DNA of 63,575 nucleotides, the filler included, from Collodictyon triciliatum (taxonomy: Eukaryota): assembly GCA_043381765.1 (NCBI GenBank). It is 11 parts of 11 records of this genome, joined end to end, with 100 filler letters (N's around TTAATTAATTAA, not from the genome) between each part and the next. Parts side by side here need not be neighbours in the genome. Positions count along the whole stretch, not along the records: positions 25,428 to 31,698 come from JBHJMP010004601.1; 10 more parts are not named here. One strand, written 5' to 3'. Below are positions 12,715 to 60,658 of the stretch, piece by piece. Each line of letters opens with the position of its first letter. Position 1 is the stretch's first letter. The notes below the pieces were generated by a model. It was not told where the DNA came from and searched no databases. It saw nothing but the letters and a program-made list of their open reading frames with translations. A program made the position numbers and the translations under genes.

Positions 12715-12786
<72 letters not shown>

Positions 12787-12873
12787 AAAAAAAACCAAAA
12801 AAAACCAAAAAAACCAAAAAAAAACCAAAAAACAACAAAAATACATAGACACTACTTCAAGTATATCCCAACG

Positions 12874-14019
12874 ATGGAGGCACAAACAGGCGAGACCGAA
12901 CCACTCGTCACAAGCCCACGCTTCAAAGAAGCAGCCTTCACTGCAGAACACTCTGTCGAGAACATCGCTCTTGCAGCGTCCACAGAGTCTGACTTCACCG
13001 AAATCGACGCCGATCTCGACGTTGTTCCGGAGGCCACCGACTCAAACGAAGCTGCAGCTTTCAACAAGGACTACGACCAACCCACAACCCAAACCTTGGA
13101 AGGTTCTGACACTGATCAAGGAATCATCGAAGAGGACGTTTACATCGATAGGGGTGATGGTGATGATACTAATGAGGAAGACAACGACCAATACCATGAT
13201 CGAGATAAAGATAGAGGTGATGATGAAGAGGGATGTGTGGGCCCAGATGAAATGGAAGAGGAAGACGAGGACGAGGAAGAGGAAGAAGATGACGATACCG
13301 GATTCAACTCACGATTTCGAAACCTTCCGCGGCGTTCTTCAGTTGAGCATTTGATGGAAAAGACTCGGCGGCTGCCCGAGATGGGGTCGAGTTCGGGCAC
13401 GATCGAGGAGGATGCCGGAGACAATGCAGGGCTGATTGGTAAAGGAGCGGACATAATCCACGACGAGAGCGACAATCGCCTCGGAGATGACGGTGGTTCG
13501 TCTGACGCGCCAGACTATGCTGTCGGCCCGCTTTCACACAAGACTGATTTGGGACGGATGTCGCTTGGTTCCCTCCAATCTTATCAAACGGAGGAAAGAG
13601 CACCATCGTCAAGGACTGAGGTTGCTGACTCTGTTATCGAGGGGCCCGATGGCGTTTTATCACCCATCGCCAAAGACTCAGAGATGGGCGCTGGTGCTGA
13701 GGGCCAGGGCGCAGAGTCATCTGCTGAGCATGTGTTCAATACTCTGGGGAATAATGAGGAGGCACAGCAGGTCCGCATGGCATCTGGGAAGGATCAGGAT
13801 CGCTTGGTTGTCGGGGACTCTGTTATGACCTCCACTCTCCCGTTAGTCTCCCATAGTCATCACCATCACAACCAAAACCACCACTATGAAGGCATCGACC
13901 CAGATAGCAGTGTTGAGGAGGCTTCAGTCCCGATACGTTCTTTGAATGAGCCGCGTGTGCAAATTTCTGTATCATGCAGGTAACCTGACATCCTCCATGT
14001 TTCCATTCATATTTTTTTA

Positions 14020-19295: not shown

Positions 19296-21479
19296 CGTGG
19301 CGCATACTTTCGAGGAATGGAAGTCACTTGGATGCAATTGAAGCGGGATGTTCTGCGTGCGAGGAACTTCAATGCGATTTTACCGTGGGTTTTGGTGGAA
19401 GGTATTTTTTTTTATAAAAAGAGTCGAAGGAGTTTCATTTCTTATTATTGACGAGCATTGATTTCTGCTCAACAAACAACCATATTAAGTCCAAATGAGC
19501 GAGGTGAAACGACATTAGATGCCATGATAATGGACAGGTTGCATTTTTGTTCTCGAAACTCATCCAAAGAACCCATCTTTAATCATTCCATCATTTTCAT
19601 TTGAAATGTGCGGTTATATGATCAATAGGGAATATATTATCTTCTTTTTGCTTTCATAATATTTTTTTATTTTGTGGCCAATTCATAAATCCACATTATA
19701 TGTTTGTATACTGAAGCATTTTTTCTCTCTCTTTTTGATTTGCTGGGAAAAAAAGTGAGGTTCATGATGTCGGTGCAGTTGCGGTGATGAAGAGAGTGAA
19801 ATCTGCCATATCGGTTGCTCGGAAAGTACTGGAAAACACAGCCCACACATTGTTGGTCGGAGAGGATGCCACGCAATTTGCTCTAAACATGGGCTTTAAA
19901 GAAGAGAGTCTGTCAACAGACGAGTCCAGGTCCGATATTTTCTTTATATATTTACTGTCTTTTCTTTTATTATGTACGACTGTTTTTTTTTCCGGATTTT
20001 TTACATGAATAGTTATAGACACATTTGCCATTTCAATTCATTGTATAAGAAAAAAAAAAGAGGAACCAAGTATAAACAATTAGTAAATAAACACAAGAAA
20101 GCGTCATCAAGATTGGCTCGCAAACTCGTGCCAACCAAACTTTTGGCGGAATGTTCGACCCGATCCAACCCAAAGCTGTGGCCCTTACTCTCCAATATCG
20201 TCCGAATCACCTGTCAAGTCCAGCGACCTGAGTCATTACATCGACAGGGTAAAATAAGAGAAATTGATAAGGAGAAGAAATAAGAGATACCACATATAAT
20301 GGGCGAAAAAAAAATCAAAGTGAAATAATTAAGAGAATTATGATTTTGAATCGAATAAAGGAAAAAGAAATAATAATGGTAATAGTAATGGTATCTAACG
20401 ATCACTTATCGATTGCGTATGGAAAATAGTACAACCATGACACCATTGGAATGGTTGCTATTGATACTCATGGGCGATTGGCTGCAGGCACTTCGACAAA
20501 CGGGCTCTCATTCAGAATCCCTGGCCGTGTTGGTGATTCGCCCATCACAGGTGCAGGTGCATATGCCGAGAAAGGAATTGGCGGAGCAGCAGGAACCGGT
20601 GACGGTGATGTTCTCGCACGCTTTCTACCAAGGTTTCTTTATCTGATTTAACTGTCTCCTCCATACAACCATGAACAGCTGAGAATATGCCAATCAAAGA
20701 AAAAAAAAGACATAATCTTTACAGAAAACGAAGTGGATATATGCGAAATGAATTTATGATGGGTATTCAGATAAATGAGACACAAAGAAAAGATGAATGT
20801 TAAAATAAAAAATTAAAATACTATACGATATGCTTTCTTGTATGTGCCTGTGTTTGATTTTTTTTAAAAAAAGAAAAGAAAAAAATGAGTAAATAATTAA
20901 GTCACAATTTTAATATAGTTTTCAGGTTGTACGCAACATGGCCGCAGGAATGAGCCCGAAAGAGGTATTTGTGCTTTGCTATCATACTTTTTTTTTTTTT
21001 GGTTCGTTGTCTGTCATGTATTAAAATCAAACAAGAAACCCTCTCATAATTAATTCGAGCTTGCTTTCGATACGCCTGACTTGAATCATTACAAAGGCGG
21101 CAGAGGATGCGCTTCGAAGAATCCTTCGCTTCTACCCAAACTTTTCTGGGGGTTTGGTCGCCCTCAACGCGAAAGGAGAACACGGTACATCCTCGAAGCT
21201 TGCACCCACCAAGAAAAAAAAAAGCATCTCTTTATAATTAATATTATGCGGAATCTCTCGTGCAAGTCGCGGTGATTTAACAGTCGAATGAAATGTGTCA
21301 TTATTCGGCTTTGTTCATCATGGCATTTTTTTTTTTATTCTAGCGACTTCTTTATAATCAACGTATCTTAAAATATCCGAATAGGAGGCGCCGGCCATGG
21401 TTTCAGCTTCAGCTATTCTGTGCAGAACGCAGCAAGTGGTGATGCTATTGTGATTCCAGTGACACCCATTTCGCTTTGA
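19296..21479 (+). CDS. AGA: N(4)-(beta-N-acetylglucosaminyl)-L-asparaginase (glycosylasparaginase), 5'-truncated
   Basis: [34 protein letters not shown], autoprocessing site HDTIGM, GTSTNG and [12 protein letters not shown]. All introns are GT-AG. Confidence 0.95.
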
Positions 21480-23762: not shown

Positions 23763-23834
23763 TCCGTTATGGTGTAGTCGGTAGCACGTATGGCTCTCAC
23801 CCATACAACCCGGGTTCGATTCCCGGTAACGGAA
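23763..23834 (+). tRNA. tRNA-Glu (anticodon CTC)
   Basis: Acceptor stem TCCGTTA/TAACGGA, anticodon arm TATGG-CTCTCAC-CCATA, T-arm CCGGGTTCGATTCCCGG, and a downstream TTTT Pol III terminator. Confidence 0.95.
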
Positions 23835-24288: not shown

Positions 24289-25327
24289 ATGGGGACCACA
24301 GCAACCTTTGACTGGAGTTTGGTGAGGAATCTGGAGGGCGAAATACACAACATGCGCAAGACTTTCGATGCGTGGATCTGCGACCAGTATAGATTCCTGG
24401 ACGCAAAGAACGATGTCCAGCAAAGTGATCCAAGGAAAAGAGAAGGTGGGTTCTTTATAAATCAAAAGCTACCTTGTGGATAGTGTGCTTTCTCTGCCTG
24501 ATTGAACTCGCAAAGCCGCCCCACGCGGCCATCCCGTAATCGTTTTTTATATTTCTTCTTTAGCTTCCATGGCTCTTCTGAAGGAAAAGGAGGCCGACCT
24601 TCGATATAGAATTGAGCGGGCCTCTCTTCGTAAGTAGTGCCTCCCGAATTCAAAAAGGAGTGGTGCTTAATTGTTGTGGATTTGTTTGCCTTTCTTTTTA
24701 TCTGTCGTCTTTTCGCTTGCAAAGTGGATTTATATCGCGAATTTATATTGCTTAATTATGGTAGATTTATATCGTGGATTTATATCGCGGATTATATTGT
24801 GGATTATATTGTGGATTATATTGTGGATTATATTGTGGATTATATTGTGGATTATATTGTGGATTATATTTTTTTGGATATATTTTGGATTTATTTTTTG
24901 GATATATTTTGGATTTATATTTTGGATTTATATTTTGGATTTATATTTTGGATTTATATTTTGGATTATATTGTGGATTATATTGTGGATTATATTGTGG
25001 ATTTATATTTTGGATTTATATTTTGGATTATATTGTGGATTTATATTTTGGATTTATATTTTGGATTTATATTTTGGATTTATATTTTGGATTTATATTT
25101 TGGATTTATATTTTGGATTTATATTTTGGATTTATATTTTGGATGTCACTTTTAATATGTTTATTTCTACTTCTATGCAGGTAATCAGCAAAGTAAGCAT
25201 GAGGTGGAGGTGTTGAGGCACGAATTGGCCCAACTGGAACAAAGAATAGCTTACCTAAATACTCAAAATACTCGTGCTGAAGAAGCTTTGGCAAAGGAAA
25301 CAGCTCTCTTGGCTGCTTCTCAGGAAG
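24289..25327 (+). CDS. Coiled-coil protein, 3'-truncated (N-terminus loosely reminiscent of kinetochore Spc25)
   Basis: Three phase-compatible exons: MGTTATFDW...DPRKRE | ASMALLKEKEADLRYRIERASL | RNQQSKHEVEVLRHELAQLEQRIAYL. The Spc25 resemblance is speculative. Confidence 0.6.
24775..25143. repeat. Intronic minisatellite of mixed 12/13-bp units (GGATTATATTGT / GGATTTATATTTT)
   Basis: Tandem units are directly visible in the sequence. Confidence 0.9.
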
Positions 25328-25427: not shown

Positions 25428-25902
25428 CCTATATTCGCCAATACAGTATATTAGTACTTTGATTGTAATTAAACCCTCTTTATTTAATCAATAAATAGAT
25501 ATCCATCCTGCCAGACAACATATCGAACTTGAATAATCTCACAAATCTCAGCATCAGCAACAACAAGGTACAAGTACTTGATTTAACAAGAATATATAAA
25601 CATAAATCTCAGCCTATCATAAATGAGAGTGTTCTGACGATTACCTACACTCCAAAGTTCAACGCATTGCCCGCAGCCATCTGCACATTGACACTCATCG
25701 CATCACTCGATATATCCACCAACCAGGTAACTAAATCCTTTTTTTTTAACAAGACATTCCTATATTCGCCAATACAGTATATTAGTACTTTGATTGTAAT
25801 TAAACCCTCTTTATTTAATCAATAAATAGATATCCATCCTGCCAGACAACATATCGAACTTGACGAATCTCACAAATCTCAGCATCAGCAACAACAAGGT
25901 AC
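25428..25902 (+). repeat. Near-identical duplication of an intron 3' end + LRR exon (25428-25571 and 25759-25902)
   Basis: The two 144-bp copies lie 331 bp apart and differ only at one codon (AAT versus ACG). Confidence 0.95.
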
Positions 25903-28900
25903 ACACATTCATATAGATATTGAATATATTTAAACACATAATTCAAACAGCCTAGTATACATTATACTTCATAAATTAACTGACAAATACACGGGGATTT
26001 TAGTTCGACACATTCCCCACAATCATCTGTACAATAACACATATCGCGACCCTCAATATTTCTGGAAATCAGGTTACAAAATTACACAACACATATTTTC
26101 AAAACAAAAAAAACTGATGAATGAACAATAGTTCAAACTATATTAATCAAATACCCTCTTAAACTCACCCATCGTACAAATCCAGATTTCATACATCCCA
26201 GATGTCATAGCAAACCTTGCAAATATTCAAAAACTGGACATATCCAACAACAAGGTCATATCTCTTCCGTTTTCCGTTTATTTGTTTATTTTTTTCCCAT
26301 TTTTTGGTTCAGTTTTATGGCCGTATTTCGCAAAAAAAAAAAAAAAAATAACAATATCATTATCAGATCGAAAAGCTACCCCAAATCATCGCCAAGCTTA
26401 AAGGCCTTCGAGGTGGACTGAATATCCAGGGAAATCAAATTAAAAATATCCCAGAAAACGTCATTAGAAATGGGTATGAGACTATCTTCGATTTCCTATC
26501 CAACTCCATGAATGGTGTTGTAAAATGGACCCAAGGAAGACTTCTGCTACTTGGTGAAGGAAACGTAGGGAAGACAACACTCATCAAATCAATCACACAA
26601 AATCACTGGTTTTTCAAGAATATGACAGACCAGCAAAGGATTGCAACTGATGGTATTGCCCACGTTGATATCGATGAGTCGATGATGGGTGGACTATTCA
26701 AGACAAAGATTTCCGTACAAATCTGGGATTTTGGTGGACAAGAGGAGTTCCAAGTAACACATCCATTCTTTTTGTCATCGGGCGCCCTCGTTTTAATCCT
26801 GTACAGACTCGACCAAGGCAAGGAGAAGAACAATCTCAGCCGCTGGGTCAAAATGCTCGATGACTTTGCACCTGGCTCAAAAATCATAATTGCTGGGACT
26901 CGTCAAGATTGCGAAAATCAAACTTATATTCAAGAGATGCAAAAAGAAATAGAACGTATCAAAAAAGAAAATGAGCGGAAACTGGATGAAAAAGCTCGCC
27001 ACATCTTCATCAGTACAGAGTTGAAAGTAAGCAACAAGAGAGGAACAAAAATATCATATTTGAAGGAAGAAGTATATAAAGGAATGATGACACTTGATAA
27101 CATGAACAAGGAAGTTCCAAAATCATACATTGGGCTGAAAGACTATCTGATTTCAAAAGGTCAAATATCGAAGTACGAACGAATCCAAAACACTTACGAT
27201 TTTGCCAAGAAGCAGCTGGGTATGGATAGAAATGAATGCGAAAGTGCTCTCAAATTCCTCCACGACCTTGGCTCGGTCGTTTGGTATTCATCACTTGAAC
27301 ATATCAAAGACATTATATTTTTAGACCCGCTCTTTCTCATTAATATATTCCGTTGTGTCTTCAGCTTCAAAGGTATCGGGAAGGACACAAATGGTATCAT
27401 TTTGTTGGGCAAGCTAAAAGACCAAATAAAACACGAATTGAAAATAGAACTAGATGAACATGTGTTCAATACAATTCTTCGAATCTTTGACCATTTCGGC
27501 CTTGGGATTCAATTCAACAAAGAATGCATCGCCTTTCCCTCACTGATGGAAGATTGCCAAAATCTCAAAGCATTATGGAATGAAAAACCAGAGTCAAACT
27601 GCATCGCTGAGACCTCTGTAGAGATAATTACCAATGGTGGAGTCCAGCTCTCTGACAAAAGCAACGTCGTCATACGGGCGCTTCGTTTGACAAAAGGGGC
27701 ACAAGCTGGAGTTCAGTATGACGACCAGTTTTTCAGAGATGTCGCATTCATACATCTGAATGCTTCGTACAAAACAGGAACGGATGAAATTCAACTGCTT
27801 CCTGGAGACGGTTTGATTATTTTGTATCAAATCCACCAGAAGAGCATTTCAGTCAAGATTAGAAAATACGAAAATGTGGTTCACGATGATGGCGATAGAA
27901 TCGTCAGGATTTTCGACATTCTTTGCACCTTCATCAAACAAATATCATCGATTCGACCAAATTTTGTGGAAGCATATCAATTTGAATGCCCTGAATGCCA
28001 ACGTCGTGGATTAGACGGTTATATTCAAACATCAGCAAAGATAAATGACTCAGAATTGAAAAAATGTACGAAGAGCCATCAATTGGAAGCGAGTACAGTG
28101 AAGCAAGGGCGCGTCTATCTGGAACAAGGTTTATTATAATCAATACATTCAAATATATTTTAATTTTCAACTTAATGATAATTTGATTATATGTTATCGA
28201 AAGCTTATAAATAATTTTTTTTAAAAAAAAGGAATCTCAAGGAGATTTGCCTCTGTGGTGAGAGCGAAAAAGACGAAGAAGTTGCAATCTGCTGAAGCAG
28301 TTCTTGAGCCGGATTCAATCGACCGGGAATTAAAAGACGAATGGATTCATGAAAAAATAGAACTGTCAGGTTATCTCGCAAAGGGGGCATATGGGCGAGT
28401 TTACACAACAACATTCAAAGGAAAAAGTGCTGTGGTGAAAATCCAAACTATGCAGAAGAACAAAGAGCAGACCTTCAGCGAGGTGATTCAATCGCTCATT
28501 TTTGAAAGCAAGTATCTGCATGAATGCAAGGAATGCGAAAACATTGTCAAATTGTTTGGTGTGTATCGTAAAGATGACGACTTTTTCATGATTATGGAGA
28601 ATGCAGGAATTTCGTTGAAAGCGATGTTGGAGAAGAAAAATATCAAGCCAACATTGCCTCAAGTCATTTCTTACACAATGCAACTTTGCAAGGGTCTCAT
28701 TTTCATGCATTCTAAAAATCTATATCACGAAGATTTGAAGGCCGATAACGTTATGATTGTGGGTGAAACAGTAAAAATTGTGGATTTTGGGATAGTGAGC
28801 CATCGCGACATAGAAAAGGTTGGTTCAAACTTACCGACGAGATTTGGTGAGAACAAGCAAGGCGGAACGGCTAATTGGCAAGCACCGGAAATCCATGAAG

Positions 28901-30678
28901 TCTCCTGTGAACCGTTTTATAATGATAATCCAAAAATGTATGGTGATGATGAAGTAAACATTGGCCATCGTGGAGAACCAAGTAATGTGTATGCTTTAGG
29001 AATGCTCGTTTGGTACATGTTCTCTGGTATCGAGCCGTTCCAGAATGAAACACAAACACAAAGTTTCATTATCAGGGGATTACGACTTGAAATACCGAAA
29101 GAAGCCACTCGGGAACTTAACCATCTCATCAAAACAAGTTGGAGGCAAAACTACAAGCTCCGACCTTCTCTGAATCAAGTTTCTGCATACCTGGATGAAT
29201 TGAAATCAGGCGAACAAAGGCTTTCTCAAAAGATGATGAGCGATTTGCTTCCAATTAAATACACTCCTTTGGCTGATATGTACCAGGGTGAATTTGTGGA
29301 GTGGCTTCGAGAGTATGGCTTTTTAAAACTAAGCGATATAATTTCAAATCAAAGCTGGGGAAGATTCCAAGAAATTCAAGACAAACTGGATGAAAGGATG
29401 ATGGTTGATATGTATCACATATCGCCGGATGAAATTTCTGCATTTGTTGAACTGTCGAAAGAGGAAGGCACTGGTAGCGATTCCCAAGCTCCAAAGAAAA
29501 AAGTTGAAGAATTATTTTACAGCCAATTGGTGACTCATCTCCAGAAAAAGAAAGACGAATTGTCAGAAAGACTGCTTGGGAAAGTGAAAGCTCTGAGGCT
29601 TGATGGAAAAACAATATCCAAGCTTGACCAGCCTGATGTCCACGCGATCCATTCGCTTTCTGAGCAAGAACTCTCGTTTGTGTCCCAATTCATAAACGAC
29701 CACCTACATCCAAATGAGATTGAGTCTCCTAAACATCCATTAAGCTCCGGTACCCTTCAAGATTTGGAAGAAATTCAATATATGAATGTGCGGTACATCC
29801 CTTACAATCATGGTATCCAACACGCAACCTCGCTGTGGATGGGCGATATGAAGCTCTCCCAGATTCCTAATTCGCTCAAGCATGTAGTCGGGTTAAAGAA
29901 ACTCTACCTCCATTCAAACCTAGTAATATTTACTTAATATCGATGAATAAATAAAATAAAAAAGCCACCAATACATTTAATTATTAACCATATTGTAACC
30001 CACCTCCTTTTTACAGCTTGTATATTTCCCGATGTCATGCTTCGCCCTTACGAACCTAGAGTATCTGGACTTATCAAAAAATAAGGTTTTCTGCTTGTGT
30101 TTTTTTTTTCTCCTTTACCAATTTTTAAATATACATATATACTAGTATATAATTTCATACCTGCATTTGAATCAACTTCATTCATAACTCCATTCTGCTC
30201 ATTTACTTTGATATACAGATATCATCAGTACCTGCTCAAATATCACACCTGACGGTTTTAACTCGCCTTGATGTCTCTCAAAATCAGTTGTCATCACTAC
30301 CTTCAGAAATATCATGCTTGAATGGTCTTATTCGCCTCGATGTCTTTCATAATCAGTTGATGTCACTGCCACAAGGATTATCGAGCTTAGCGTGCCTTGT
30401 ACAGTTGGATATCCGTGATAATTCGGTTTGTTAAATGTATAAATGTCGAAAAGTCAGGCCACTATTTTGAACTCATAATTATATTTCCATTCCTACATAT
30501 TGATGAGCTTCCTGCCGGAATTACTGCTCTGACTGCTCTCAGTCGCTTGTGCATCCGCAACAAAGAAGGAAAATCGAGCATCAAGAAGGCGCCTCCCGGC
30601 ATCACACTTCTGCCTTGTTGGAACGAGCAGAGCAATCCAGATTATGAAATAATTCGTAAACTGGTGCTTTATGACCAC
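25499..30678 (+). CDS. Roco protein: LRR-Roc-COR-kinase-(SAM-like helical region)-LRR; 5'-truncated, 3' end uncertain
   Basis: 69-nt LRR exons at 25499-25567, 25658-25726, 25830-25898, 26004-26072 and 26186-26254. Roc motifs GEGNVGKT, ATDGI and WDFGGQEEF. COR region with CPEC...C..H. A phase-1 intron (28129-28231) joins the kinase (KGAYG, HEDLKADN, DFG, APE). C-terminal LRR exons at 30017-30085, 30219-30425 and 30499-30678. Confidence 0.9.
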
Positions 30679-31798
30679 GTAAGAAATCTATGTTTGTTAT
30701 TCATTCACATGCTGCTCATATATAAGATAAATGCATTCGTATGTTAGTGTTTCTTTTTCTTTCTTCTTTTTTGGTTTGTTTTGTTTAAAAATAAAAGAAA
30801 TCTCAATTACTTATTTTATCAAACGACCAGCAGTAACCAAGAACTGGATTTTTTTCTGTATGAAGCCGGTTAAAGTGGTAAGGTGCAAGCTGGTATTAAA
30901 GTGTACAATATATCAAAATAGCTTTGTTTTTTTCGCTACTTCTTGAGTGTTGATGGTTGGAATATAGGTCATCAAAAAATCGGCAGGCAAATGCAGCATC
31001 TTTTTTGCTCCAACACCCGGCGATTTATTTTTACTACCTGCCAGCCAGCCAGCCAAGCGTTTCACAACCTGCTCACCTTTTTCTCCATCTTGACTCCCTT
31101 TTCACCCCATTTCACCCTTTCTTTCTCGGGTTTTTTCAGCACAGCTTTTCCCGATATCACAACCAGCAATCCACAAGCACCACACCCACACCAATGAGTC
31201 AGAATAAAGATGATAAAAAAAAAGCATGAGTAAGGTCAGCTCCAATATAAAATAATCATGTGGATACCAGACAGGAAAATGAGAGATAAAGAGAGGAGAA
31301 AGTAAGTCACGTGAAGACCTGGTGATTCCCTTGATTGTAATCCGCGATGCTCAATTAGTGATGCCTCAGTTATACGAGACATATACAAATTGCAACATTC
31401 GTCTGTCCATGGTCCTTTAAGGTTTTTCGATTGAGTGGGCTGTGTATCTGTGCGCAAGGTGATGCAAGATTCTGTATTAAAATTTTAAAAAAAGAAATAG
31501 GAAGAAATGGAAGTTTATCTTGCGATCACTTTTATTTTTTGCTTCTCATTAAATTTATCATGAGGTGAACAACATCTATTGAATTGTTTGTCTAAAGCGC
31601 AGTGATACATACATACATACATACATACATACATACATACATACATACATACATACATACATACATACATACATACATACATACATACATACATACATNN
31701 NNNNNNNNNNNNNNNNNNNNNNNNNNNNNNNNNNNNNNNNNNTTAATTAATTAANNNNNNNNNNNNNNNNNNNNNNNNNNNNNNNNNNNNNNNNNNNN

Positions 31799-33150: not shown

Positions 33151-34324
33151 TGTTATTTTTGTTGTTGATTTATTTGTTTCGCAAATGAAACGACACGTAC
33201 TATACAAATTCATACCTTCATCAAACTTGTGGGCAATACTCTCAGAAAACATTATGTGGAAAAGGCGTGAGGAATGAGAGATACAGACGAAATGGATTAC
33301 ATTTTGTTGGAATTGCCTGTTGAAACCACACTTCGGGATGAGATAATCGCGTATCTATTTTTGTTTGCCATATAAGAGTCCATATTTTCCCAGAAAATCG
33401 AAGTCTCAAACGATGATAAAAGAAAATCGAAGCGGTGTATTTGCAAAATTTACTAAGCACAGAAGTTTGCATCAGAGCGACTTTGTGGCTCTTTTTCTTT
33501 TTCTTTTTCTTTTTCTTTTTCTTTTTCTTTTTCTTTTTCTTTTTCTTTTTCTTTTTCTTTTTCTTTTTCTTTTTCTTTTTCTTTTTCTTTTTTTCTTTTT
33601 TTCTTTTTTTCTTTTTCTTTCTTTTTCTTTTTCTTTTCTTTTTCTTTTTCTTTTTTATCTTTATTAAAGTTGAAATAGGTGCGTCCAAGATATAGCAATC
33701 TCGGTTTTGCAAGCTTTCATCCCAAAATGTATCCAAATCATTTGAATCCAAATCCAGGTCAGTCTCGGGCACAATAATTCCAGATATAGTCAAATTCACT
33801 GAATATTTATAGCCTGCTTGTGGTTGGACAAAAAAAACCAGAGCAGCCACGAATCCAAGCAGCAGCGGTCGAATGTGTGGGAAAAGTCGCCCAGGCAGGC
33901 AGTAAAGAATGCGAGGCGGAAGGGAAAAGCAAATGGAAGGGTGCAAGGAACTATGCAGCAAACTTGAGACCGTGTTTGGAGCAGATGATCACTGGCATAT
34001 GTATACACGAAGAAAAAAAGAAAGACGAGAGATGAGAAAGAACATTGCACTGTCCATCTATCTTCGATCTGCCTTGTTTCCTTTGCAGACAAGACTTGCT
34101 GTTGAATCGATCAGATCTTTTCATATTCCAAAGGAAAGGAAGAAGGAAAAGAAGAAGAAGAAAAAAAAGCGAGTCTCTGGATACGATAAGGCGTTCACCT
34201 TTTTGTGTGACGGGGAATGTGGCGTTAGTGAACTAGTGTGTGGAAGCAGTCTAGTGAATTGTATTTGTGGTGGTTTCGAAACGCACAGAGATAACTGCTC
34301 AAGTCCTATTCCTCAGTATACGCG

Positions 34325-38989: not shown

Positions 38990-40529
38990 ATGGGGAACTT
39001 ACAGTCGAAAGTAAAGTCAGTTCAAGAAAAGGGCATGAAAATCGAGGCCAGTATCGACGATGTACCTGCCTATTACATATATATTCTTTCAGGCCACCGA
39101 GTGCGCATTATCACATCCATCAATACCTTAATGTTCATTACGAGGGGCTTTTTTTTTTCAACTTGTAGTTGGGCGACCACTTTGAGAATCTGGACAATAT
39201 GATTACCGAAAAGTTTGTCAAGTTTAACTCACAATTGGATTCGTTGCAAGGAATTGTAATGGAACAGGTTTCGTAATCTCTTTGACAAAACTAAATGACC
39301 AAATGAATGAAGCAATCTCAGCCATTTACCAGTTAGCAATAGAGCCAAACGTACCCATATTATAGATTGCAGCACATCGCAGAGGCCACAACAAGAAGCT
39401 ATCTCTCCAAGAATCCACAATATCTCTGTGGAAGTCTGTCAACGCCGCTCATCGAGAGACTCCCAACACACCTTCACGGAGGTTTCAACCCAATCCCTTT
39501 CGTGCGCTGCAGCACATTAAGAATTGGAGCGCTATGAACGAATGTGTGCAATCGGTCTCTTACTTGCTCCAAACACCACCCGACATCCATCTGCGAGTCA
39601 GCCCGACACTCCTCTTGGAGAGTAGAACCACTGGACAAGCAGAGCTTCTGTCCAGCACCCCGTGGGTCTATGTTGGGCATTGGTCCATCACACGCCCTGT
39701 CCACGAAATCAAGGCACCGACAAAAGTCATTGGCTCTGAAGGATCTGGGCAGAACCAGTTCCGCTATCCATTCAACATCACTCTGCATCCGATTAACGGG
39801 CGCATATATGTCGCTGACTCAGAAAACAACCGAGTAGTCATCCTCACTTCATCTTTTTCGCCGTTTCTCATAATAACACAGCCAAGTCCAGGTTCAAGGC
39901 CTTTCCAAGACCCACGGGGCGTGGGCATCAGTCCTGATGGAAGTTTGATTGTGATTGTTGAGTGCGTTGGGAAGCAAATCCACTTGCTGGACATGAACCA
40001 TAACTTAATACGCTCCATCAACCAGTTGCCCGCAAATATTGTGAAAGCCACCACATCCTTGTATTACCCATACTACGCTGTCTTTGACCAACACTCCAAC
40101 TTCTACGTCAGCGACCGCGCAAACAACAGAGTCCTCAAGTTTGATCGGAACGGAAACCTACTGCGCCAAATCGGAGAACCCTCATCGCCCCGCCCGGCCG
40201 CATCAGTCCTCGGCATTCTTGTCAACGACGACGGGCTTTTACTCACTTATCCGCAGTCAGGAAATGTCCTTCGGGTGTATTCATTGGATGGCGAATTCAA
40301 GTATGAGAAAATGCTGGCCGAAACAAGAGACTTCAACAGCCTGGCGCGTGGGCCGGACGGCGGGTTTCTCATCTGCGACTGCTCAGCGAGTAGGATCGTA
40401 TTTTACGACCGCAACTGTTGCGAGATTCACCAGGTTCGCGTTCGTGGAGTAAGAGGGGCTGTCTACGCTCCCGATGGCAGGCTGTTTGCTCTGTCAGGCT
40501 ACCAAAGTCACTCCATACAAATATTCTAG
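38990..40529 (+). CDS. NHL-repeat beta-propeller protein with predicted N-myristoylation (MGNLQS) and a short coiled coil
   Basis: Three in-phase exons. NHL motifs GSGQNQFRYPFNI...IYVADSENNRV, FQDPRGVGI and FYVSDRANNRVLKFD. Confidence 0.85.
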
Positions 40530-44463: not shown

Positions 44464-45706
44464 ATGATTACCTCAGCAGAATGAAACCAAAAATCTGTTT
44501 AACACAGGAATTATGCCTCACAAATGTTCTTATTGCGATGTAAGGCTTTTTTAAGACGAATCAGTATCGATATTTTGTTCGAATGGGAAGATTCATCCAC
44601 CATTTATTGAACCACCGCCTGAATCCATCAGCTTTATTTGACGGAGATTTTGATTCACCTCAGCAATTTCTAAAATATATAAGCTAGAAAGAACTGATAT
44701 CAAATGAATCCAGTTAGGGCATCGAAGGAAATAATTGAAACATTTTTAACACTTCCTTCAAAATTCATGACAAAGAATATCATTTCTTGGGGTCTCTCCT
44801 TTTGTCGACGAATAAAAGTCCAAAATTTCTTGAAATACACATTTTTTTGGGATGAACATGGACAAGGTATGTTGAAGTACAAGATTCCGAAGCTTGGATT
44901 GGAAAATAATTCTTCACATCAAAGATTTACTGCACAAAATAATAAATTGGCACATGTCTTTAAAATGGCCCAAGAAATGTCGAATATCAATGAGCAAGTA
45001 ATATTAGCATTGAAGCTGACAGAAATGCAGAAGTTGAACACAAAAAGTTTCAATACCCGACTACTAATCAAGTGGCTGCTTCAATGATAGGATAACCCAA
45101 TAGCACAAGAGATATCATTATCAAGACGAATGATGACAGACTTAAAAGAGATATATGCACACATATATATTACGATGCTCTTCAATATCCCATCATATTT
45201 TGAAATGGTCATAATGGCTATCATCTCAATAATTACAAATTCGATTCCAAGAGAAAAACTGGAAGTTTTGGGCAATTTTTTTTTTAAATAAAAAAGGAAC
45301 TTGAAACAAAATTTATGGCTAAATGATTGTGATTAGACAAGCTGAAAATAAAATACCCTTGCTGGTAACAAGGACTTTATTTAACCAGTTCTTGGTGGAC
45401 ATGTATGCATAAGTTGAAGCAGATTTTTTTGTTTAAAAATAATCAAAAGAGCTTAGAGCATAGAATGATGCTCATCTATTAGATTCTGTCTCTTCTGATA
45501 GAAAAATAAAGAATGTTGTTAGAATGGTTATTTTATCTTCTGGGTATGTTGGCGAGCCTATATTCATGTATTTAAAGTTTCATCTCTTTAATATGGAACG
45601 AATTAAAGGGGCTCTCCCATGCGCACAATTTGGTTTGGGTTGAAAATCACATAAAATCAGACAAAATCGATGACATTATATCAGCATAACTCCCGAATGA
45701 GGACGA
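44464..45706 (+). mobile_element. Degenerate Helitron RepHel fragment (stops and frameshifts)
   Basis: Across frames: GIMPHKCSYC...FCSNGKIHPP, PTTNQVAA, RDIIIK...YDALQYPIIF*NGHNGYH, LFNQFLVDMYA*VE, RMVILSSGYVGEP, and the HUH-type motif KGLSHAHNLVW...IDDIISA*LP. Confidence 0.85.
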
Positions 45707-46676
45707 NNNNNNNNNNNNNNNNNNNNNNNNNNNNNNNNNNNNNNNNNNNNNNNNNNNNNNNNNNNNNNNNNNNNNNNNNNNNNNNNNNNNNNNNNNNNNN
45801 NNNNNNNNNNNNNNNNNNNNNNNNNNNNNNNNNNNNNNNNNNNNNNNNNNNNNNNNNNNNNNNNNNNNNNNNNNNNNNNNNNNNNNNNNNNNNNNNNNNN
45901 NNNNNNNNNNNNNNNNNNNNNNNNNNNNNNNNNNNNNNNNNNNNNNNNNNNNNNNNNNNNNNNNNNNNNNNNNNNNNNNNNNNNNNNNNNNNNNNNNNNN
46001 NNNNNNNNNNNNNNNNNNNNNNNNNNNNNNNNNNNNNNNNNNNNNNNNNNNNNNNNNNNNNNNNNNNNNNNNNNNNNNNNNNNNNNNNNNNNNNNNNNNN
46101 NNNNNNNNNNNNNNNNNNNNNNNNNNNNNNNNNNNNNNNNNNNNNNNNNNNNNNNNNNNNNNNNNNNNNNNNNNNNNNNNNNNNNNNNNNNNNNNNNNNN
46201 NNNNNNNNNNNNNNNNNNNNNNNNNNNNNNNNNNNNNNNNNNNNNNNNNNNNNNNNNNNNNNNNNNNNNNNNNNNNNNNNNNNNNNNNNNNNNNNNNNNN
46301 NNNNNNNNNNNNNNNNNNNNNNNNNNNNNNNNNNNNNNNNNNNNNNNNNNNNNNNNNNNNNNNNNNNNNNNNNNNNNNNNNNNNNNNNNNNNNNNNNNNN
46401 NNNNNNNNNNNNNNNNNNNNNNNNNNNNNNNNNNNNNNNNNNNNNNNNNNNNNNNNNNNNNNNNNNNNNNNNNNNNNNNNNNNNNNNNNNNNNNNNNNNN
46501 NNNNNNNNNNNNNNNNNNNNNNNNNNNNNNNNNNNNNNNNNNNNNNNNNNNNNNNNNNNNNNNNNNNNNNNNNNNNNNNNNNNNNNNNNNNNNNNNNNNN
46601 NNNNNNNNNNNNNNNNNNNNNNNNNNNNNNNNNNNNNNNNNNNNNNNNNNNNNNNNNNNNNNNNNNNNNNNNNNNN

Positions 46677-48050
46677 GTTGAGAATCATAAAGCAAGCTTA
46701 TAACATAATAAAAGGACATCCCCTTACAATTAGAGAGCGTCTTGATTTTATATTTTTGATTATTCGTAGTGATTAAGTTGCGGCAGATGTCTTTCAGCTC
46801 CTTCAGCCTTTGGGGATTCAGAAAAGTACCTTTCATGTTGTAGATAAAGGCCGACAGCATCACTCGATTCCACAACCTTACTTTCCCCACGTCCGAGAGA
46901 TGAAAGTTGCTCCACCCTGATATTTTCGACTTGATGTCTTCAACCAGGCTTGTCCATTTGCTATCCAATTGTGGACCGAAGATGATACCAAGATGCTTGA
47001 GTGGATGTGAGAGTGGCTTCCACACAATGTTTCCTGGAAACACAAGTCCGTCCTGAGAACCGAAAAGAATTCCATCTGTTTTTTCGTAGTTGATTTTCCC
47101 GCTGACAGCTCGTGTGTATTCCTGCATGCATTTGTTGGCGAGTGTGGCGCCTTCGTGAGACCGCAAGATGAACTCTGTGTCGTCTGCATATTGAAGTAGC
47201 AGTTGGTTGTGTACCTTGTTTTCGTTTCGGAAGTGGTTTGCAAGGCAAAGTCAGCGACAAAGTTGAAGAGCAGTGGTGCAAGTGGGCAGCCTTGATACAC
47301 CCCGCTCTGTCTTTGAATTGCATCCGTAGGTCCGTGTGCCGTGAGTGCCTTTCTGTTGCATTGTCGTGCAGTTTCTTGATAAGACCGGTCAATCCGGTAC
47401 AGAAGCCTCTTTTGTGTAGGATGGTTTCCAGTGCTTCGTGGTTCACATAGTCGTATGCTTTCTCCAGGTCGTAGAAAATCATAGCACGGTGTACCCCGCT
47501 TACTTGATATTCCATGTACTCCTTATTGTCAATCCAGATGTTTGTGTCGATGTTCCTTCCGTTCATGAAACTAATCTGCTCTTTGGATATGAGTTTGTAA
47601 GCGATGGGTGATATGCGATTTCTGAGTAGCGTCGTAAATATCTTATAGTCGTTATTCAACAGTGATATTGGCCGCCAGTCTGCAAGGTTGCTCGAGTCTC
47701 CTTTCTTTGGTATCAGCCGCACCGTGGCCTCTGTAAATCCTTGCAGTAGGTCGCCACCAGACATGATTCCATTCAGAAAAGCCACCAAGGGTGCCTTGAC
47801 CTCATTAAAGAAAGCAGAGTATATTCCGTTTGGCAACCTATCTGAACCTGGCGCCTTTCCGTTGTGTAGCGACTTGACCGCTTTCCACAATTCGCCTGCA
47901 TCTATTGGTGCTATCATGCTGGCTGCTTACGAGTATGAAGTCTTAGAGCAGTTTGTGGTGATAAGCTCGAGAGTAGCAGCATCATAGTCTTATCTTGACC
48001 ACATATTTGAGAAGAAGTCGTGGGTGTTCTTTTTGTTGTTACGAGGTTAT
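46677..48050 (-). mobile_element. Non-LTR retrotransposon (L1/Tx1-like) reverse transcriptase, frameshifted; 3' part lies in the gap
   Basis: KAPGSD, LIPKKGD...WRPISLLNNDYKI, DLEKAYD, QGCPLAPLLF and YADD (47179-47190) fall in three different frames. Confidence 0.92.
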
Positions 48051-48596
48051 AAATGCTGTATATCTGCAGAGTGTGTGCAGGAAGGATACATGGTCTTTTC
48101 TATTTTTCTTTCCTAGTCCAAAGCACCATTCCTCCATCTGTTCAAGGTCTCGCAAGTATCTCGCTTACATTTTTCATGTTATTTGTGAATATCTTGATTT
48201 TCTATTTAGACTTCAGAGTGATTCATATCGAGCATCTTGGGATATTAATGCTGCTGGCCTGTTATTTATATTTATATATATATATTTGTTGTTGTTGCTA
48301 ACCGAATAAGATTTCTGTGTCATCTCTATTCTTTGATATTATGTGAGTGCATGCCGATGTTAATAAATATCTTAAATCTGGTAGACGCGGATGACTCTAA
48401 CTGTCGCCTGTGTTCGAAAACACAGCTAAACGTCTCCCTAGCAAAAAATGCTTTCCACCTTCCTCATATGAATAAAATAAATAAATAAATAAGTCTGTAA
48501 GCAAGATAATGATGATAGCCTTTCCTCTTTTATTCTATAACTCGACTAGTTCTAGATAAAGTCCTATCCTTTTGCTCTTCTCTCTCCCTACTTTCT

Positions 48597-50549
48597 CTAA
48601 TCTGAGCTTCCATCGAACCGTGCCAGCTGCGTTATCTACCATCCCCGTTTCAAATAATACAGAAAAAAAAAAGAAAGAGGGAAAAAGTACAGCCGTATTT
48701 TACAAAAAAGAAAAATCGTTGCTTTGGTTCTTGATAAAATGAAAAGTAATCAGATATCGATTCTAATCCTTGACTCTTGGGTATCGTGTAATCTGCCTCA
48801 CCTTATTGTTGGCAACATCCAGCATTTCAAGATTGCACAGTCGATCGATGGCGTCGGGGATGGCTGTTATCTGGTTGATGATGCGTCATTCTTTACATCT
48901 TGTTTGATATGACCGATAAGATTACAGTCCTAACAGATTCATGCTCACCGACGGTGTCTCAAGATTCGTGCTTTACCTTGTTGTTGGATAAGTCGAGTTG
49001 CTTTAACAAAGTCAGGCGAAGCACGCACGCAGGAACATCGGTAAGCTATTTTATCAAGATGAGTCCATTTTCTGAGATAAAGTCTCGCCATCAAAGAAAA
49101 TTACGCGGTTTCTCGCAAGACATAAGTAGCTCAAGGTCTGTAGGAGTGTGATGCTCTCAGGTAACGTCCAGAGGCTCATTCTATACAGGCTCAAGCTTTT
49201 GATGAGGATTTGCTGTGCGGTTGGAGTCCATCCTGGCTCTGCTACCGATTCAATCTACACACAAATCCGTCCTTTATTCTTTATTTCCATCTTACATTCA
49301 GCTTTTGTAATGTGACCAAAAGATGAGATTTGTAGAAAATATAGTCGCGCCATCTATATATTGAATGACTTACCGATTCGTAGAGCTGAAGTGCACGAAT
49401 GAGTTTGTACTCACTATGTCCGGTGTTGCTCCAGCACGGTATATTTGTGATGCCAAGCGGAGCCCTCTGAATCGACTGTTGTCCTCTGCCTTTTATCCAA
49501 AGCTCTTTGAGATTGGTGAGCTCTGCAATTTGCTGTGGAAGCTCTTCTATCTACAGGCAATTTTTTTTTATGGAGAGTCTCTTCTGATATCTACTATGAT
49601 TATATTTTAAACTAACCGGAGTAGCATCTACATTTAAACTCAAGAGCCCAGTCAGGCAGGAGATTTGTGGAGGCAATAATGGCAACTGATTATAACTGAG
49701 CTTAAGACATGTAATACCAGTCCAATGCAGTATTTCTGGGGGTAGTGATGATAGTTGGTTGCCACGAACATCAATATCTTTGAGATTGGTCAAGCACGAT
49801 ATTTCTTGTGGAAGCGATGACAATTGATTATTACACACATCAACACATGTGATAGCTGACAAACATGATATTTCTTGTGGAAGTGATGAAAATTGATTAT
49901 AGCTAATATCGAGAAGTGTGAGACCAGTCAAACATGATATTTCTGGTGGAAGCGATGATGATTGATTGTAACTCGCATCAAGGCATGTGAGACCAGTCAA
50001 GCACGATATTTCTGGGGGCAATAACGACATCTTATTGTTGTGTACAGCTAGATACATGAGACCAGTCAAACAAGAAATTTCTAATGGCAGCGAAGAGAGT
50101 TTATTGTCACTAATATCAATGTATGAAAGGCCAACCAAGCATGAGATTCCTGAAGGTAGCATTGAAAGCCTATTGTTGTGGACACACAGATATGTAAGAC
50201 CAGTCAAACATGATATTTCTGGTGGAAGCGATGACAATTGATTAGAAGTGACAGCAAGGTGTATAAGGCCGGTCAAACACGATATTTCTTGTGGGAGCGA
50301 AGACAACTGATTGTAGTTTGCATCGAGATGTGAGAGACCAGTCACACGCGATATTTCTGGAGGGAGCGAAGACAGTGAATTCAGGTAAAGTTCCAGCCGA
50401 ACCAAACGGTCCAACTCAAAGACAGCGAGAGGAACCGATATCATACTCCTTTCTCGAAGATTCAGCAAGGTGCGGGCTTTAAGAGTTTCGACATCCTCAT
50501 CCCCTGTGATTTTCAGCAGCTTCTCTAAAAGCGCGTTGTGGTCGGACAT
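48597..50549 (-). CDS. LRR protein related to the Roco LRR modules (last exon tentative)
   Basis: Exon 1 (49617-50549) holds about 12 repeats of 23 aa, xLxLxxNQLSSLPPEISCLTGL. It is followed by a cap exon (49374-49550), exon 49105-49254, and 69-nt exons at 48977-49045 and 48802-48870, all phase 0. Confidence 0.85.
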
Positions 50550-50847
50550 CCAAGGAAAGGGGCAGTGGAGTCGGTTTGGGCGGATTCCGAGGCTGTGAGG
50601 GCGAGTGTACTGAGTTGTGTCTTTTGTGTCTTTTGTGTCTTTTGTGTCTTTTGTGTCTTTTGTGTCTTTTGTGTCTTTTGTGTCTTTTGTGTCTTTTGTG
50701 TCTTTTGTGTCTTNNNNNNNNNNNNNNNNNNNNNNNNNNNNNNNNNNNNNNNNNNNNTTAATTAATTAANNNNNNNNNNNNNNNNNNNNNNNNNNNNNNN
50801 NNNNNNNNNNNNNAAAAGGAACAAAAAAAAAAAAAAAAAAAAAAAAA

Positions 50848-59918: not shown

Positions 59919-60658
59919 NNNNNNNNNNNNNNNNNNNNNNNNNNNNNNNNNNNNNNNNNNNNNNNNNNNNNNNNNNNNNNNNNNNNNNNNNNNNNNNNNN
60001 NNNNNNNNNNNNNNNNNNNNNNNNNNNNNNNNNNNNNNNNNNNNNNNNNNNNNNNNNNNNNNNNNNNNNNNNNNNNNNNNNNNNNNNNNNNNNNNNNNNN
60101 NNNNNNNNNNNNNNNNNNNNNNNNNNNNNNNNNNNNNNNNNNNNNNNNNNNNNNNNNNNNNNNNNNNNNNNNNNNNNNNNNNNNNNNNNNNNNNNNNNNN
60201 NNNNNNNNNNNNNNNNNNNNNNNNNNNNNNNNNNNNNNNNNNNNNNNNNNNNNNNNNNNNNNNNNNNNNNNNNNNNNNNNNNNNNNNNNNNNNNNNNNNN
60301 NNNNNNNNNNNNNNNNNNNNNNNNNNNNNNNNNNNNNNNNNNNNNNNNNNNNNNNNNNNNNNNNNNNNNNNNNNNNNNNNNNNNNNNNNNNNNNNNNNNN
60401 NNNNNNNNNNNNNNNNNNNNNNNNNNNNNNCAATAATCACGAAGAGCTCCCACTTTCCTTTTCATTAAACATTCTTACTTTCCCACCCAAGCACGAAGTC
60501 GCCAGTTGGGGGTGAAGTGGGTGGAATGCAACATCAGTGGCTGTTTCCGTGTACCTCGCTATTTTATGTAAGACTGTTACTTTGTGAAGGTCGTGCAATT
60601 ATGCAGGCTATATGAATACGCATCAGATTTTAGCCAGCACCAGCCATTAATTCATATC

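Follow-up and report, generated by a model that had tools for sequence, protein, structure and literature searches.

A contig of 6.3 kb from the AT-rich, unannotated genome of Collodictyon triciliatum (assembly GCA_043381765.1, record JBHJMP010004601.1) appears, judging by its sequence, to hold the 3' 6.3 kb of a real and probably functional ROCO gene, in which an N-terminal array of leucine-rich repeats (LRRs), a Roc GTPase domain, a COR domain, a Ser/Thr-type kinase domain, and a C-terminal LRR array follow one another in this order. The contig occupies positions 25428-31698 of the window, namely, the whole stretch of 63,575 nucleotides (nt) that was analysed, which is made of 11 pieces of ~6.2 kb each joined by 10 linkers of the form N44-TTAATTAATTAA-N44, contains two longer N gaps (45707-46676 and 59919-60430), and brings together pieces that are not neighbours in the genome. 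The reading favoured overall, which we hold with moderate confidence, is that of a partial ROCO kinase gene with a tandem-duplicated array of two alternating exon types, A and B, a recent short exchange within that array, and a role of its product in intracellular signalling.

The N-terminal LRR region on the contig contains five consecutive exons (25499-26254), all of them exactly 69 nt long, flanked by AG on the 5' side and GT on the 3' side, in phase 0 at either border, and each encoding 23 stop-free amino acids (aa) in the LRR register, as the first-pass annotation of this DNA had described them:

25499..25567, + strand: LRR exon A1, 69 nt, phase 0-0, ISILPDNISNLNNLTNLSISNNK
25658..25726, + strand: LRR exon B1, 69 nt, phase 0-0, FNALPAAICTLTLIASLDISTNQ
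25830..25898, + strand: LRR exon A2, 69 nt, phase 0-0, 97% identical to A1, with AAT>ACG (Asn>Thr) at repeat position 12
26004..26072, + strand: LRR exon B2, 69 nt, phase 0-0, FDTFPTIICTITHIATLNISGNQ, 70% nt identity to B1, with the lowest LRR score of the five (5.8 bits)
26186..26254, + strand: LRR exon A3, 69 nt, phase 0-0, ISYIPDVIANLANIQKLDISNNK, 61-62% identical to A1 and A2

Their consensus is (I/F)xxLPxxIxxLxxLxxLxIsxN(K/Q), and the two types, which end in ISNNK (A) or ISxNQ (B), alternate in the order A1-B1-A2-B2-A3. The introns after A1, B1, A2, B2, and A3 measure 90, 103, 105, 113, and 112 nt, respectively, and intron density in this region is ~10 times higher than in the 1762- and 1691-nt exons of the same gene. 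A protein hidden Markov model (HMM), whose sole training set was 14 LRR units of multi-LRR exons called LRR_8 by Pfam, scored the five exons at 21.6, 18.1, 11.9, 10.9, and 5.8 bits, with 4.0 bits for the best shuffled control (n = 260). A constant exon length with one LRR per exon, which defines the brown-algal type of LRR exon, was found in all five N-terminal exons and in one C-terminal exon, the exceptions being an exon of 207 nt with three LRRs and, at a second locus, an exon with 12 LRRs. Symmetric phase-0 exons of this kind allow repeats to be gained, lost, and exchanged in frame over evolutionary time. Intron 1 (25568-25657) is itself 90 nt long without an in-frame stop, its retention would add 30 residues in frame, and a read-through open reading frame (ORF) extends across it (25499-25825).

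The catalytic domains and the C-terminal LRRs are encoded downstream of this array, in exons of quite different sizes:

26367..28128, + strand: Roc-COR exon, 1762 nt, with the sixth LRR, Roc (1.2e-20), and COR-A (1.8e-12), ending in phase 1
28232..29922, + strand: kinase exon, 1691 nt, with Pkinase (1.3e-34), a linker of ~250 aa, and the first C-terminal LRR
30017..30085, + strand: C-terminal single-LRR exon, 69 nt, phase 0-0
30219..30425, + strand: three-LRR exon, 207 nt, with three 23-aa LRRs without an intron (LRR_8 6.6e-11; period 69)
30499..30678, + strand: last exon, with the last LRR and a conserved tail (…APPGITLLPCW…LVLYDH), followed by GT

Roc was recognized by PF08477 with 74.3 bits (cutoff 27) at residues 58-181 of the 26367-28136 ORF, and COR-A, located directly after it, by PF16095 with 47.8 bits (cutoff 35.3) at residues 251-385. 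The COR exon is joined to the kinase exon by a 103-nt GT..AG intron in phase 1, and the kinase (Pkinase, 120.2 bits) lies C-terminal to COR in the same gene, followed by the linker of ~250 aa, which has no Pfam match. The P-loop, switch II, and kinase motifs read from the translation are intact and include a P-loop (GEGNVGKT, 26553-26576) and DFGGQ (26727-26741) in Roc, and VxK with its Lys, DFG, and APE (28882-28890) in the kinase. The catalytic loop of the kinase reads HEDLKADN (28726-28749), that is, HED and not Arg-Asp, which makes it a non-RD kinase.

LRR-Roc-COR-kinase is the core order of LRRK proteins and Dictyostelium Roco kinases, and the gene from Collodictyon shares with them this order, the P-loop and DxxG of Roc, and the VxK, DFG, and APE of the kinase. 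However, it differs from the LRRK type in its HED, which replaces HRD or YRD, in its C-terminal LRR array, and in the ankyrin, armadillo, and WD40 domains, none of which was detected by Pfam in the scanned ORFs, where the C-terminus carries LRRs and the N-terminus lies off the contig. The identity of its Roc-COR region to animal LRRK1-type matches is 20-26%. The protein would most likely act inside the cell as a kinase under GTP control, with its LRR arrays serving to bind other proteins; we infer a cytosolic signalling role for it and, should it have one, any role in recognition.

Contigs from four runs, referred to here as X1, X2, X3, and X5, were compared with the gene; none of the runs contains as much as half of the sampled words, and the support that they provide is that of contigs from relatives. 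Run X1 contains 15 contigs that are 90-95% like the gene and cDNA-like, with joints at 25726|25830 (GT..AG), 28128|28232, 29922|30017 (where 23 letters are replaced), and 30425|30499. X1 is taken as cDNA of a close relative or paralogue, since the segments missing at these joints are exactly the predicted introns; that the run consists of RNA is a guess, and one of its loose ends also resembles a cDNA-synthesis adaptor. Moreover, X1 has at 30085 a loose end of 9 letters, which agree with those that open the following exon. The X1 cDNA also carries one extra 69-nt unit in the three-LRR exon, where a joint goes back 69 nt, and other X1 contigs have an A2-like exon whose next LRR exon is a different one, or a B1-like exon with a different 5' half. 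These differing transcripts may come from paralogues or from another species.

At the DNA level, X3 holds 259 nt identical to 25880-26138, and X2, labelled as a freshwater metagenome, holds 246 nt (29471-29716) and 151 nt (30571-30721) with one difference each. In X5, a DNA contig ~93% alike spans exon A3 and 52 nt of its upstream intron. Sharp module borders in X5 contigs were considered as a sign of shuffling and rejected, since the 21 nt clipped off upstream of 26134 retain ~67% likeness to the window, which corresponds to ordinary intron divergence. X5, likewise labelled as a freshwater metagenome, contains pieces 90-95% alike, as X1 does, and the organism or its close kin seem to occur in fresh water. 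Scans of JGI metagenomes with the Roc-COR protein gave 60 pattern matches and no relative, and a scan with a 40-nt stretch of the repeated intron gave 0 matches.

The nearest relatives of the protein were found in Diphylleia rotans. A search with Roc-COR across 1.84 billion representatives returned 7432 proteins at E<=0.001 and nine at E<=1e-30, with a best identity of 39%, and the top six relatives that were looked up are all transcripts of Diphylleia rotans (EukProt EP00002; P0078-P0081, P0151, P0152), which provide the best Roc-COR matches (E 3e-64 to 3e-40; 30-39% identity). Taken by itself, this one gene family, at <=39% identity, hints at a collodictyonid-like, CRuMs-related protist. As in the gene described here, Pfam finds in them Roc and COR-A behind an N-terminal LRR array; in contrast, they have AAA-type ATPase domains (PF13401, PF13191) after COR and no kinase, and they are known as transcripts alone. 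The isoforms of these relatives differ in length by N-terminal truncations, a non-LRR insert of 43 or 49 aa, and C-terminal variants. The kinase-exon protein gave no match at E<=1e-10 when compared with longer proteins. Among the papers listed in a literature search, none linked ROCO to Diphylleia, Collodictyon, CRuMs, Mantamonas, or Rigifila, and among the collodictyonid papers listed, none contained the term 'leucine-rich repeat'.

The most recent event in the array left two nearly identical stretches, each of them centred on an A-type exon:

25428..25572, + strand: repeat copy 1, made of 71 nt from the 3' end of an intron, exon A1, and the first 5 nt of intron 1, starting at the first base of the contig
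25759..25903, + strand: repeat copy 2, made of 71 nt from the 3' end of intron 2, exon A2, and the first 5 nt of intron 3

Both copies are 145 nt long, lie 331 nt apart from start to start, and agree at 143 of 145 positions. Their only mismatches (25533-25534) are adjacent and fall in one codon, AAT vs ACG, encoding Asn vs Thr, and their identity is 100% across the 71 nt of upstream intron and ends 5 nt into the downstream intron. The early observation that an intron-plus-exon unit recurs 331 nt further on, with an identical intron part and a one-codon Asn/Thr change, is thus borne out over the 145 nt. However, its interpretation as a recent cassette duplication does not hold for the A-B cassette, as the near-identity is confined to this tract; a recent duplication of a 331-nt A-B cassette is rejected because B1 and B2 would then match as closely as A1 and A2, and their nt identity is just 70%, compared with 97% for A1 and A2 and 61-62% for either of these with A3. 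The two A-to-B introns show a weak collinear similarity (score 24 vs 16.9±2.8), which 16 of 500 shuffles reach, and no collinear similarity was found in the seven other intron pairs (47 to 495 of 500 shuffles).

The simplest history suggested by these comparisons is that of an older A-B array in which a short gene conversion, or the copying of one module, took place recently. The N-terminal LRR solenoid would have grown by tandem duplication of an exon-plus-intron module, which would have fixed an intron at the same phase-0 position in every 23-residue repeat, and the modules would form an older two-repeat A-B super-unit that was duplicated long ago. A later short, non-reciprocal exchange of at least 145 nt, either a gene conversion between A modules or the insertion of a fresh copy of one module, would have made A1 and A2 identical together with 71 nt of their upstream introns, and the dinucleotide change would have come after this exchange, unless one patch stayed unconverted. 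A1 and A2 are the sole recent pair, and their one non-synonymous difference is too little for a ratio of non-synonymous to synonymous rates (dN/dS). The Asn/Thr site corresponds to repeat position 12, two residues before the LxxLxLxxN core, and would lie off the predicted binding strand; in the usual model of LRRs, the residue at repeat position 12 is not on the concave strand.

Several points weigh against the favoured reading. The part of the gene on the contig, the larger one, amounts to ~1418 codons, and its 5' end, with the start, the total number of LRRs, and any signal or anchor, is off the contig; COR-B (PF25497) was not detected by Pfam at E<=0.01. The depth of X1 is 0 over 25968-26327, and the splice borders of B2 and A3 are those read from the genomic sequence. 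Similarly, 25428-25607 is uncovered by the contigs of all four runs, and the copy number of the 145-nt unit is the one given by the assembly. At the other end of the gene, the window has AT as the acceptor at 30497-30498, where the intron removed in the relative's cDNA (30426-30498) ends, and the 3' part may be damaged or follow another splicing pattern; the AT could be a true acceptor change or a base error, and the use of an in-frame AG 9 nt downstream of 30498 would drop three residues (IDE). The support that intron similarity lends to an old cassette duplication is weak and takes no account of the eight tests made, and gene conversion and one-module duplication are indistinguishable from one locus.

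A second locus with LRRs of the same length is present on the minus strand of the piece 44464-50713, with downstream exons that span 48802..49550:

49617..50444, - strand: multi-LRR exon, with 12 LRRs of 23 aa in one uninterrupted exon (LRR_8 1.8e-27; period 69)
49374-49550, - strand: tail exon, homologous to the tail of the last ROCO exon
49105-49254, - strand: 150-nt exon, downstream of the tail exon
48977-49045 and 48802-48870, - strand: single-LRR exons, each 69 nt, phase 0

LRR units occur on only two of the 11 pieces of the window, in which single-LRR exons total eight; the 69-nt module is a family trait, and there is more than one such gene. Units group by type across the two loci. Thus, one 69-nt unit of the second locus (G2_e69b) is 62% identical to A3, as near as A3 is to A1 and A2, and a unit of the C-terminal ROCO array (R_C3) is 71% identical to units of the second locus vs 74% to its own neighbour. 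Plain gene duplication explains this grouping equally as well as shuffling does. A nucleotide profile of 23 units (nhmmer) recovered only these 23 training units, all of them on coding strands, with the next matches at E 1.3-7.5, and no relic, intronic, or antisense LRR exons were found with it over the two loci examined (~6 kb each). The possibility that the missing 5' part of the ROCO gene lies on other pieces of the window was rejected, since LRRs are on only two of the 11 and the second locus has no continuation into A/B exons.

Some features surround these loci. An ORF with a reverse transcriptase domain (RVT_1, 7.2e-15), of the long interspersed nuclear element (LINE) type, lies at 46964-47926 (-), on the strand of the second locus and ~0.9 kb downstream of its final 69-nt LRR exon, as a single case. 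Long micro- and minisatellites adjoin both LRR loci, namely, 30 copies of a 13-nt unit (24764-25144), (ATAC)23 (31605-31698), and 11 copies of a 9-nt unit (50615-50713), the last of which shares its frame with the ORF start of the second locus (DTK repeats).

The gene could also be a member of a large and actively diversifying family of LRR-GTPase-kinase receptors whose 69-nt phase-0 exons are shuffled both inside genes and from gene to gene, and perhaps combinatorially spliced, to yield new specificities in the recognition of pathogens or prey, as has been proposed for the ROCOs of brown algae, although we consider this unlikely. Symmetric phase-0 exons of equal length would allow any skip, duplication, or swap in frame, and the 145-nt tract reflects a very recent event at the level of the module; nevertheless, the sole difference between A1 and A2 would fall outside the LxxLxLxxN strand. 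Such a family would also be in line with 69-nt LRR exons on two of the 11 pieces of a 63-kb window and with the grouping of G2_e69b with A3 and of R_C3 with units of the second locus, but the latter is equally expected from plain gene duplication. The X1 contigs with other exon neighbours, a different 5' half, or an extra 69-nt unit may be cited in its favour too, but may represent paralogues or another species. Against it, the 12-LRR intronless exon and the extra 69-nt unit of the relative inside its three-LRR exon indicate that the number of repeats changes without exon shuffling. The HED of the kinase could be a further sign of such receptors, as non-RD kinases are reportedly linked to pattern-recognition receptors, a connection said to go back to Dardick and Ronald in 2006. 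On the other hand, nhmmer found nothing else below E = 1 that could be a relic, intronic, or antisense LRR exon, and indels of a whole LRR unit were found in 0 of 9 isoform comparisons within five clusters of Diphylleia, whose members are relatives at <=39% identity. In favour of such a family, the LINE-type reverse transcriptase beside the LRR exons of the second locus has a parallel in Tetrahymena (PMC6564038). From the diversifying LRR-GTPase-kinase repertoire that the first-pass annotation had put forward, the Roco domains (Roc, COR-A, and Pkinase) and the existence of another locus with 69-nt exons can be retained, whereas the relic or antisense exons used as its hallmark in Ectocarpus were not found at the two loci.

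The position of the first repeat copy calls for consideration of the assembly itself. The contig starts at 25428, right after the linker, which is the exact left edge of the 145-nt repeat, and it ends in (ATAC)n; across the window, 10 of the 20 internal piece ends sit in simple repeats. Since piece ends are often in repeats, a contig that breaks where a repeat begins is nothing unusual in this assembly and carries no information on further copies. Thus, the break had been located correctly at the edge of the unit, but it gives no sign of the upstream copies that it was thought to announce. The start at the left edge is explained by the fact that a graph assembler stops where the sequences upstream of two copies differ. 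From copy 1, the contig runs through 186 nt of unique sequence, in which exon B1 lies, until copy 2 is reached, and therefore the junction between an A-type exon and intron 1 must exist somewhere. In the X1 cDNA, the joint 25898>25658 connects the end of an A-type exon to B1 and is equal to 25567|25658. In addition, an X5 DNA contig passes, in our own comparison, from an A-type exon (loose end 25902) into intron-1-like sequence and, therefore, supports the junction between A1 and intron 1. Hence, it seems improbable that the 145-nt repeat is an assembly artefact, the product of two alleles of one A exon, or of its collapsed paralogues, being threaded wrongly at the tip of a short-read contig, with no A1-B1-A2 order at this locus, for although copy 1 lies exactly at the start of a contig in a fragmented assembly that breaks at repeats, the compared runs leave 25428-25607 uncovered, and the copies differ by one dinucleotide as alleles might, these points are met by the unique sequence after copy 1, by the joints of the relative's cDNA from an A-type exon to B1 and from B1 to an A-type exon, by the X5 contig, and by a contig stop that is expected when the sequences upstream of the copies differ.

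The favoured reading, a ROCO kinase gene with a tandemly duplicated and locally homogenised LRR array, can be set beside two modular LRR systems. In the brown algae Ectocarpus and Saccharina, the sections of PMC3341825 and PMC11378527 that deal with LRR-ROCO genes describe 'type I LRR exons' with one LRR per 72-nt phase-2 exon, as well as intronic and antisense relic LRR exons, LRR domains recombined between paralogues, alternative splicing, and positive selection; the one-LRR-per-exon ROCO precedent that had been invoked from Ectocarpus is a real one. The algal genes resemble the Collodictyon gene in their N-terminal LRRs, which are distributed one per exon with identical length and symmetric phase and allow repeats to be gained, lost, or exchanged in frame, in their signs of recent module-level recombination, and in the presence of LRR-only loci with the same exon type elsewhere in the genome. 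However, the algal frame given there is GxxPxxL...NxLx in 72 nt and phase 2, a definition that does not cover exons of 69 nt in phase 0, and in Collodictyon the exon border separates 'Nx' from the 'L' that follows, which places it about two codons before the algal one. Furthermore, the algal genes are presented as LRR-ROC-COR, whereas a kinase and a second, C-terminal LRR array are added here, and relic and antisense LRR exons, which the same sections portray as a hallmark of Ectocarpus, were not found by nhmmer around the two loci. The nearest relatives of the Collodictyon protein are Diphylleia transcripts and not stramenopiles.

In Tetrahymena, according to the portion of PMC6564038 devoted to its LRR genes, these form arrays of exactly 90-bp exons with phase-2 introns, comprise tens of thousands of exons, are explained by clonal expansion, unequal crossing-over, and ectopic recombination, and are often adjoined by a LINE-like element. 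The likeness to this protist LRR family lies in the fixed-length exons, the same-phase introns, and the retroelement neighbour, of which there is one case here, at the second locus. In contrast, 90 bp in phase 2 differ from 69 nt in phase 0, tens of thousands of exons from the eight seen here, and genes characterized there as mostly LRR-only from a ROCO gene. Because exon length, phase, intron position, and domain architecture differ from both the algal and the Tetrahymena designs, the evidence favours an independent origin of the modular 69-nt design. This agrees with the initial suggestion of a possibly independent origin with respect to the brown alga, which the comparison of 69 nt in phase 0 with 72 nt in phase 2, and of an intron about two codons earlier, has strengthened.

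Among the remaining pieces of the window, the segment 10646-11752 (-) holds an intronless WD40 ORF of 369 aa (WD40 1.7e-37) with 51% G+C vs 31-40% in the window; both strands are open around it, and it could represent contamination, DNA of foreign origin, or a local island of composition. Four further features lie on pieces unrelated to the LRR loci:

19739-20005, + strand: Asparaginase_2 exon (1.3e-14)
23763-23834, + strand: tRNA (67 bits)
33245-33988, - strand: RPC4-like ORF (5.3e-07)
39366-40526, + strand: NHL-repeat ORF (2.6e-11)

In a Pfam scan of 79 further ORFs of the window, the sole match was the Asparaginase_2 fragment, which yielded no independent marker of the lineage, and two long open frames, at 57393-59918 (-) with 842 aa and at 12715-13980 (+) with 422 aa, had no Pfam match.

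The design itself is already known from brown algae and Tetrahymena; its exon length, phase, and architecture are new here, and its use for receptor diversity is unsupported so far. As it stands, the locus is a well-formed case of an LRR array whose exons were duplicated in tandem and homogenised over a short tract, a case that helps annotation and is unsurprising. A wider proposal, to which we give only limited credence, is that symmetric fixed-length LRR mini-exons were invented independently for a third time, after the 72-nt exons of brown algae and the 90-nt exons of Tetrahymena, in a deep-branching freshwater predator related to collodictyonids, where ROCO non-RD kinases and LRR-only genes would make up a multi-gene family that exchanges modules by gene conversion or module duplication and serves as a set of intracellular receptors for prey or pathogens. 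If the family were large and recombining, eukaryotes would have reached one LRR per symmetric exon on a ROCO core repeatedly, each time with its own length and phase, and the design would then be one selected for the evolvability of recognition surfaces and not a brown-algal oddity. It would also bring into view, for the first time, candidate receptors for recognition from a lineage close to the base of Amorphea, where genome biology is almost lacking.

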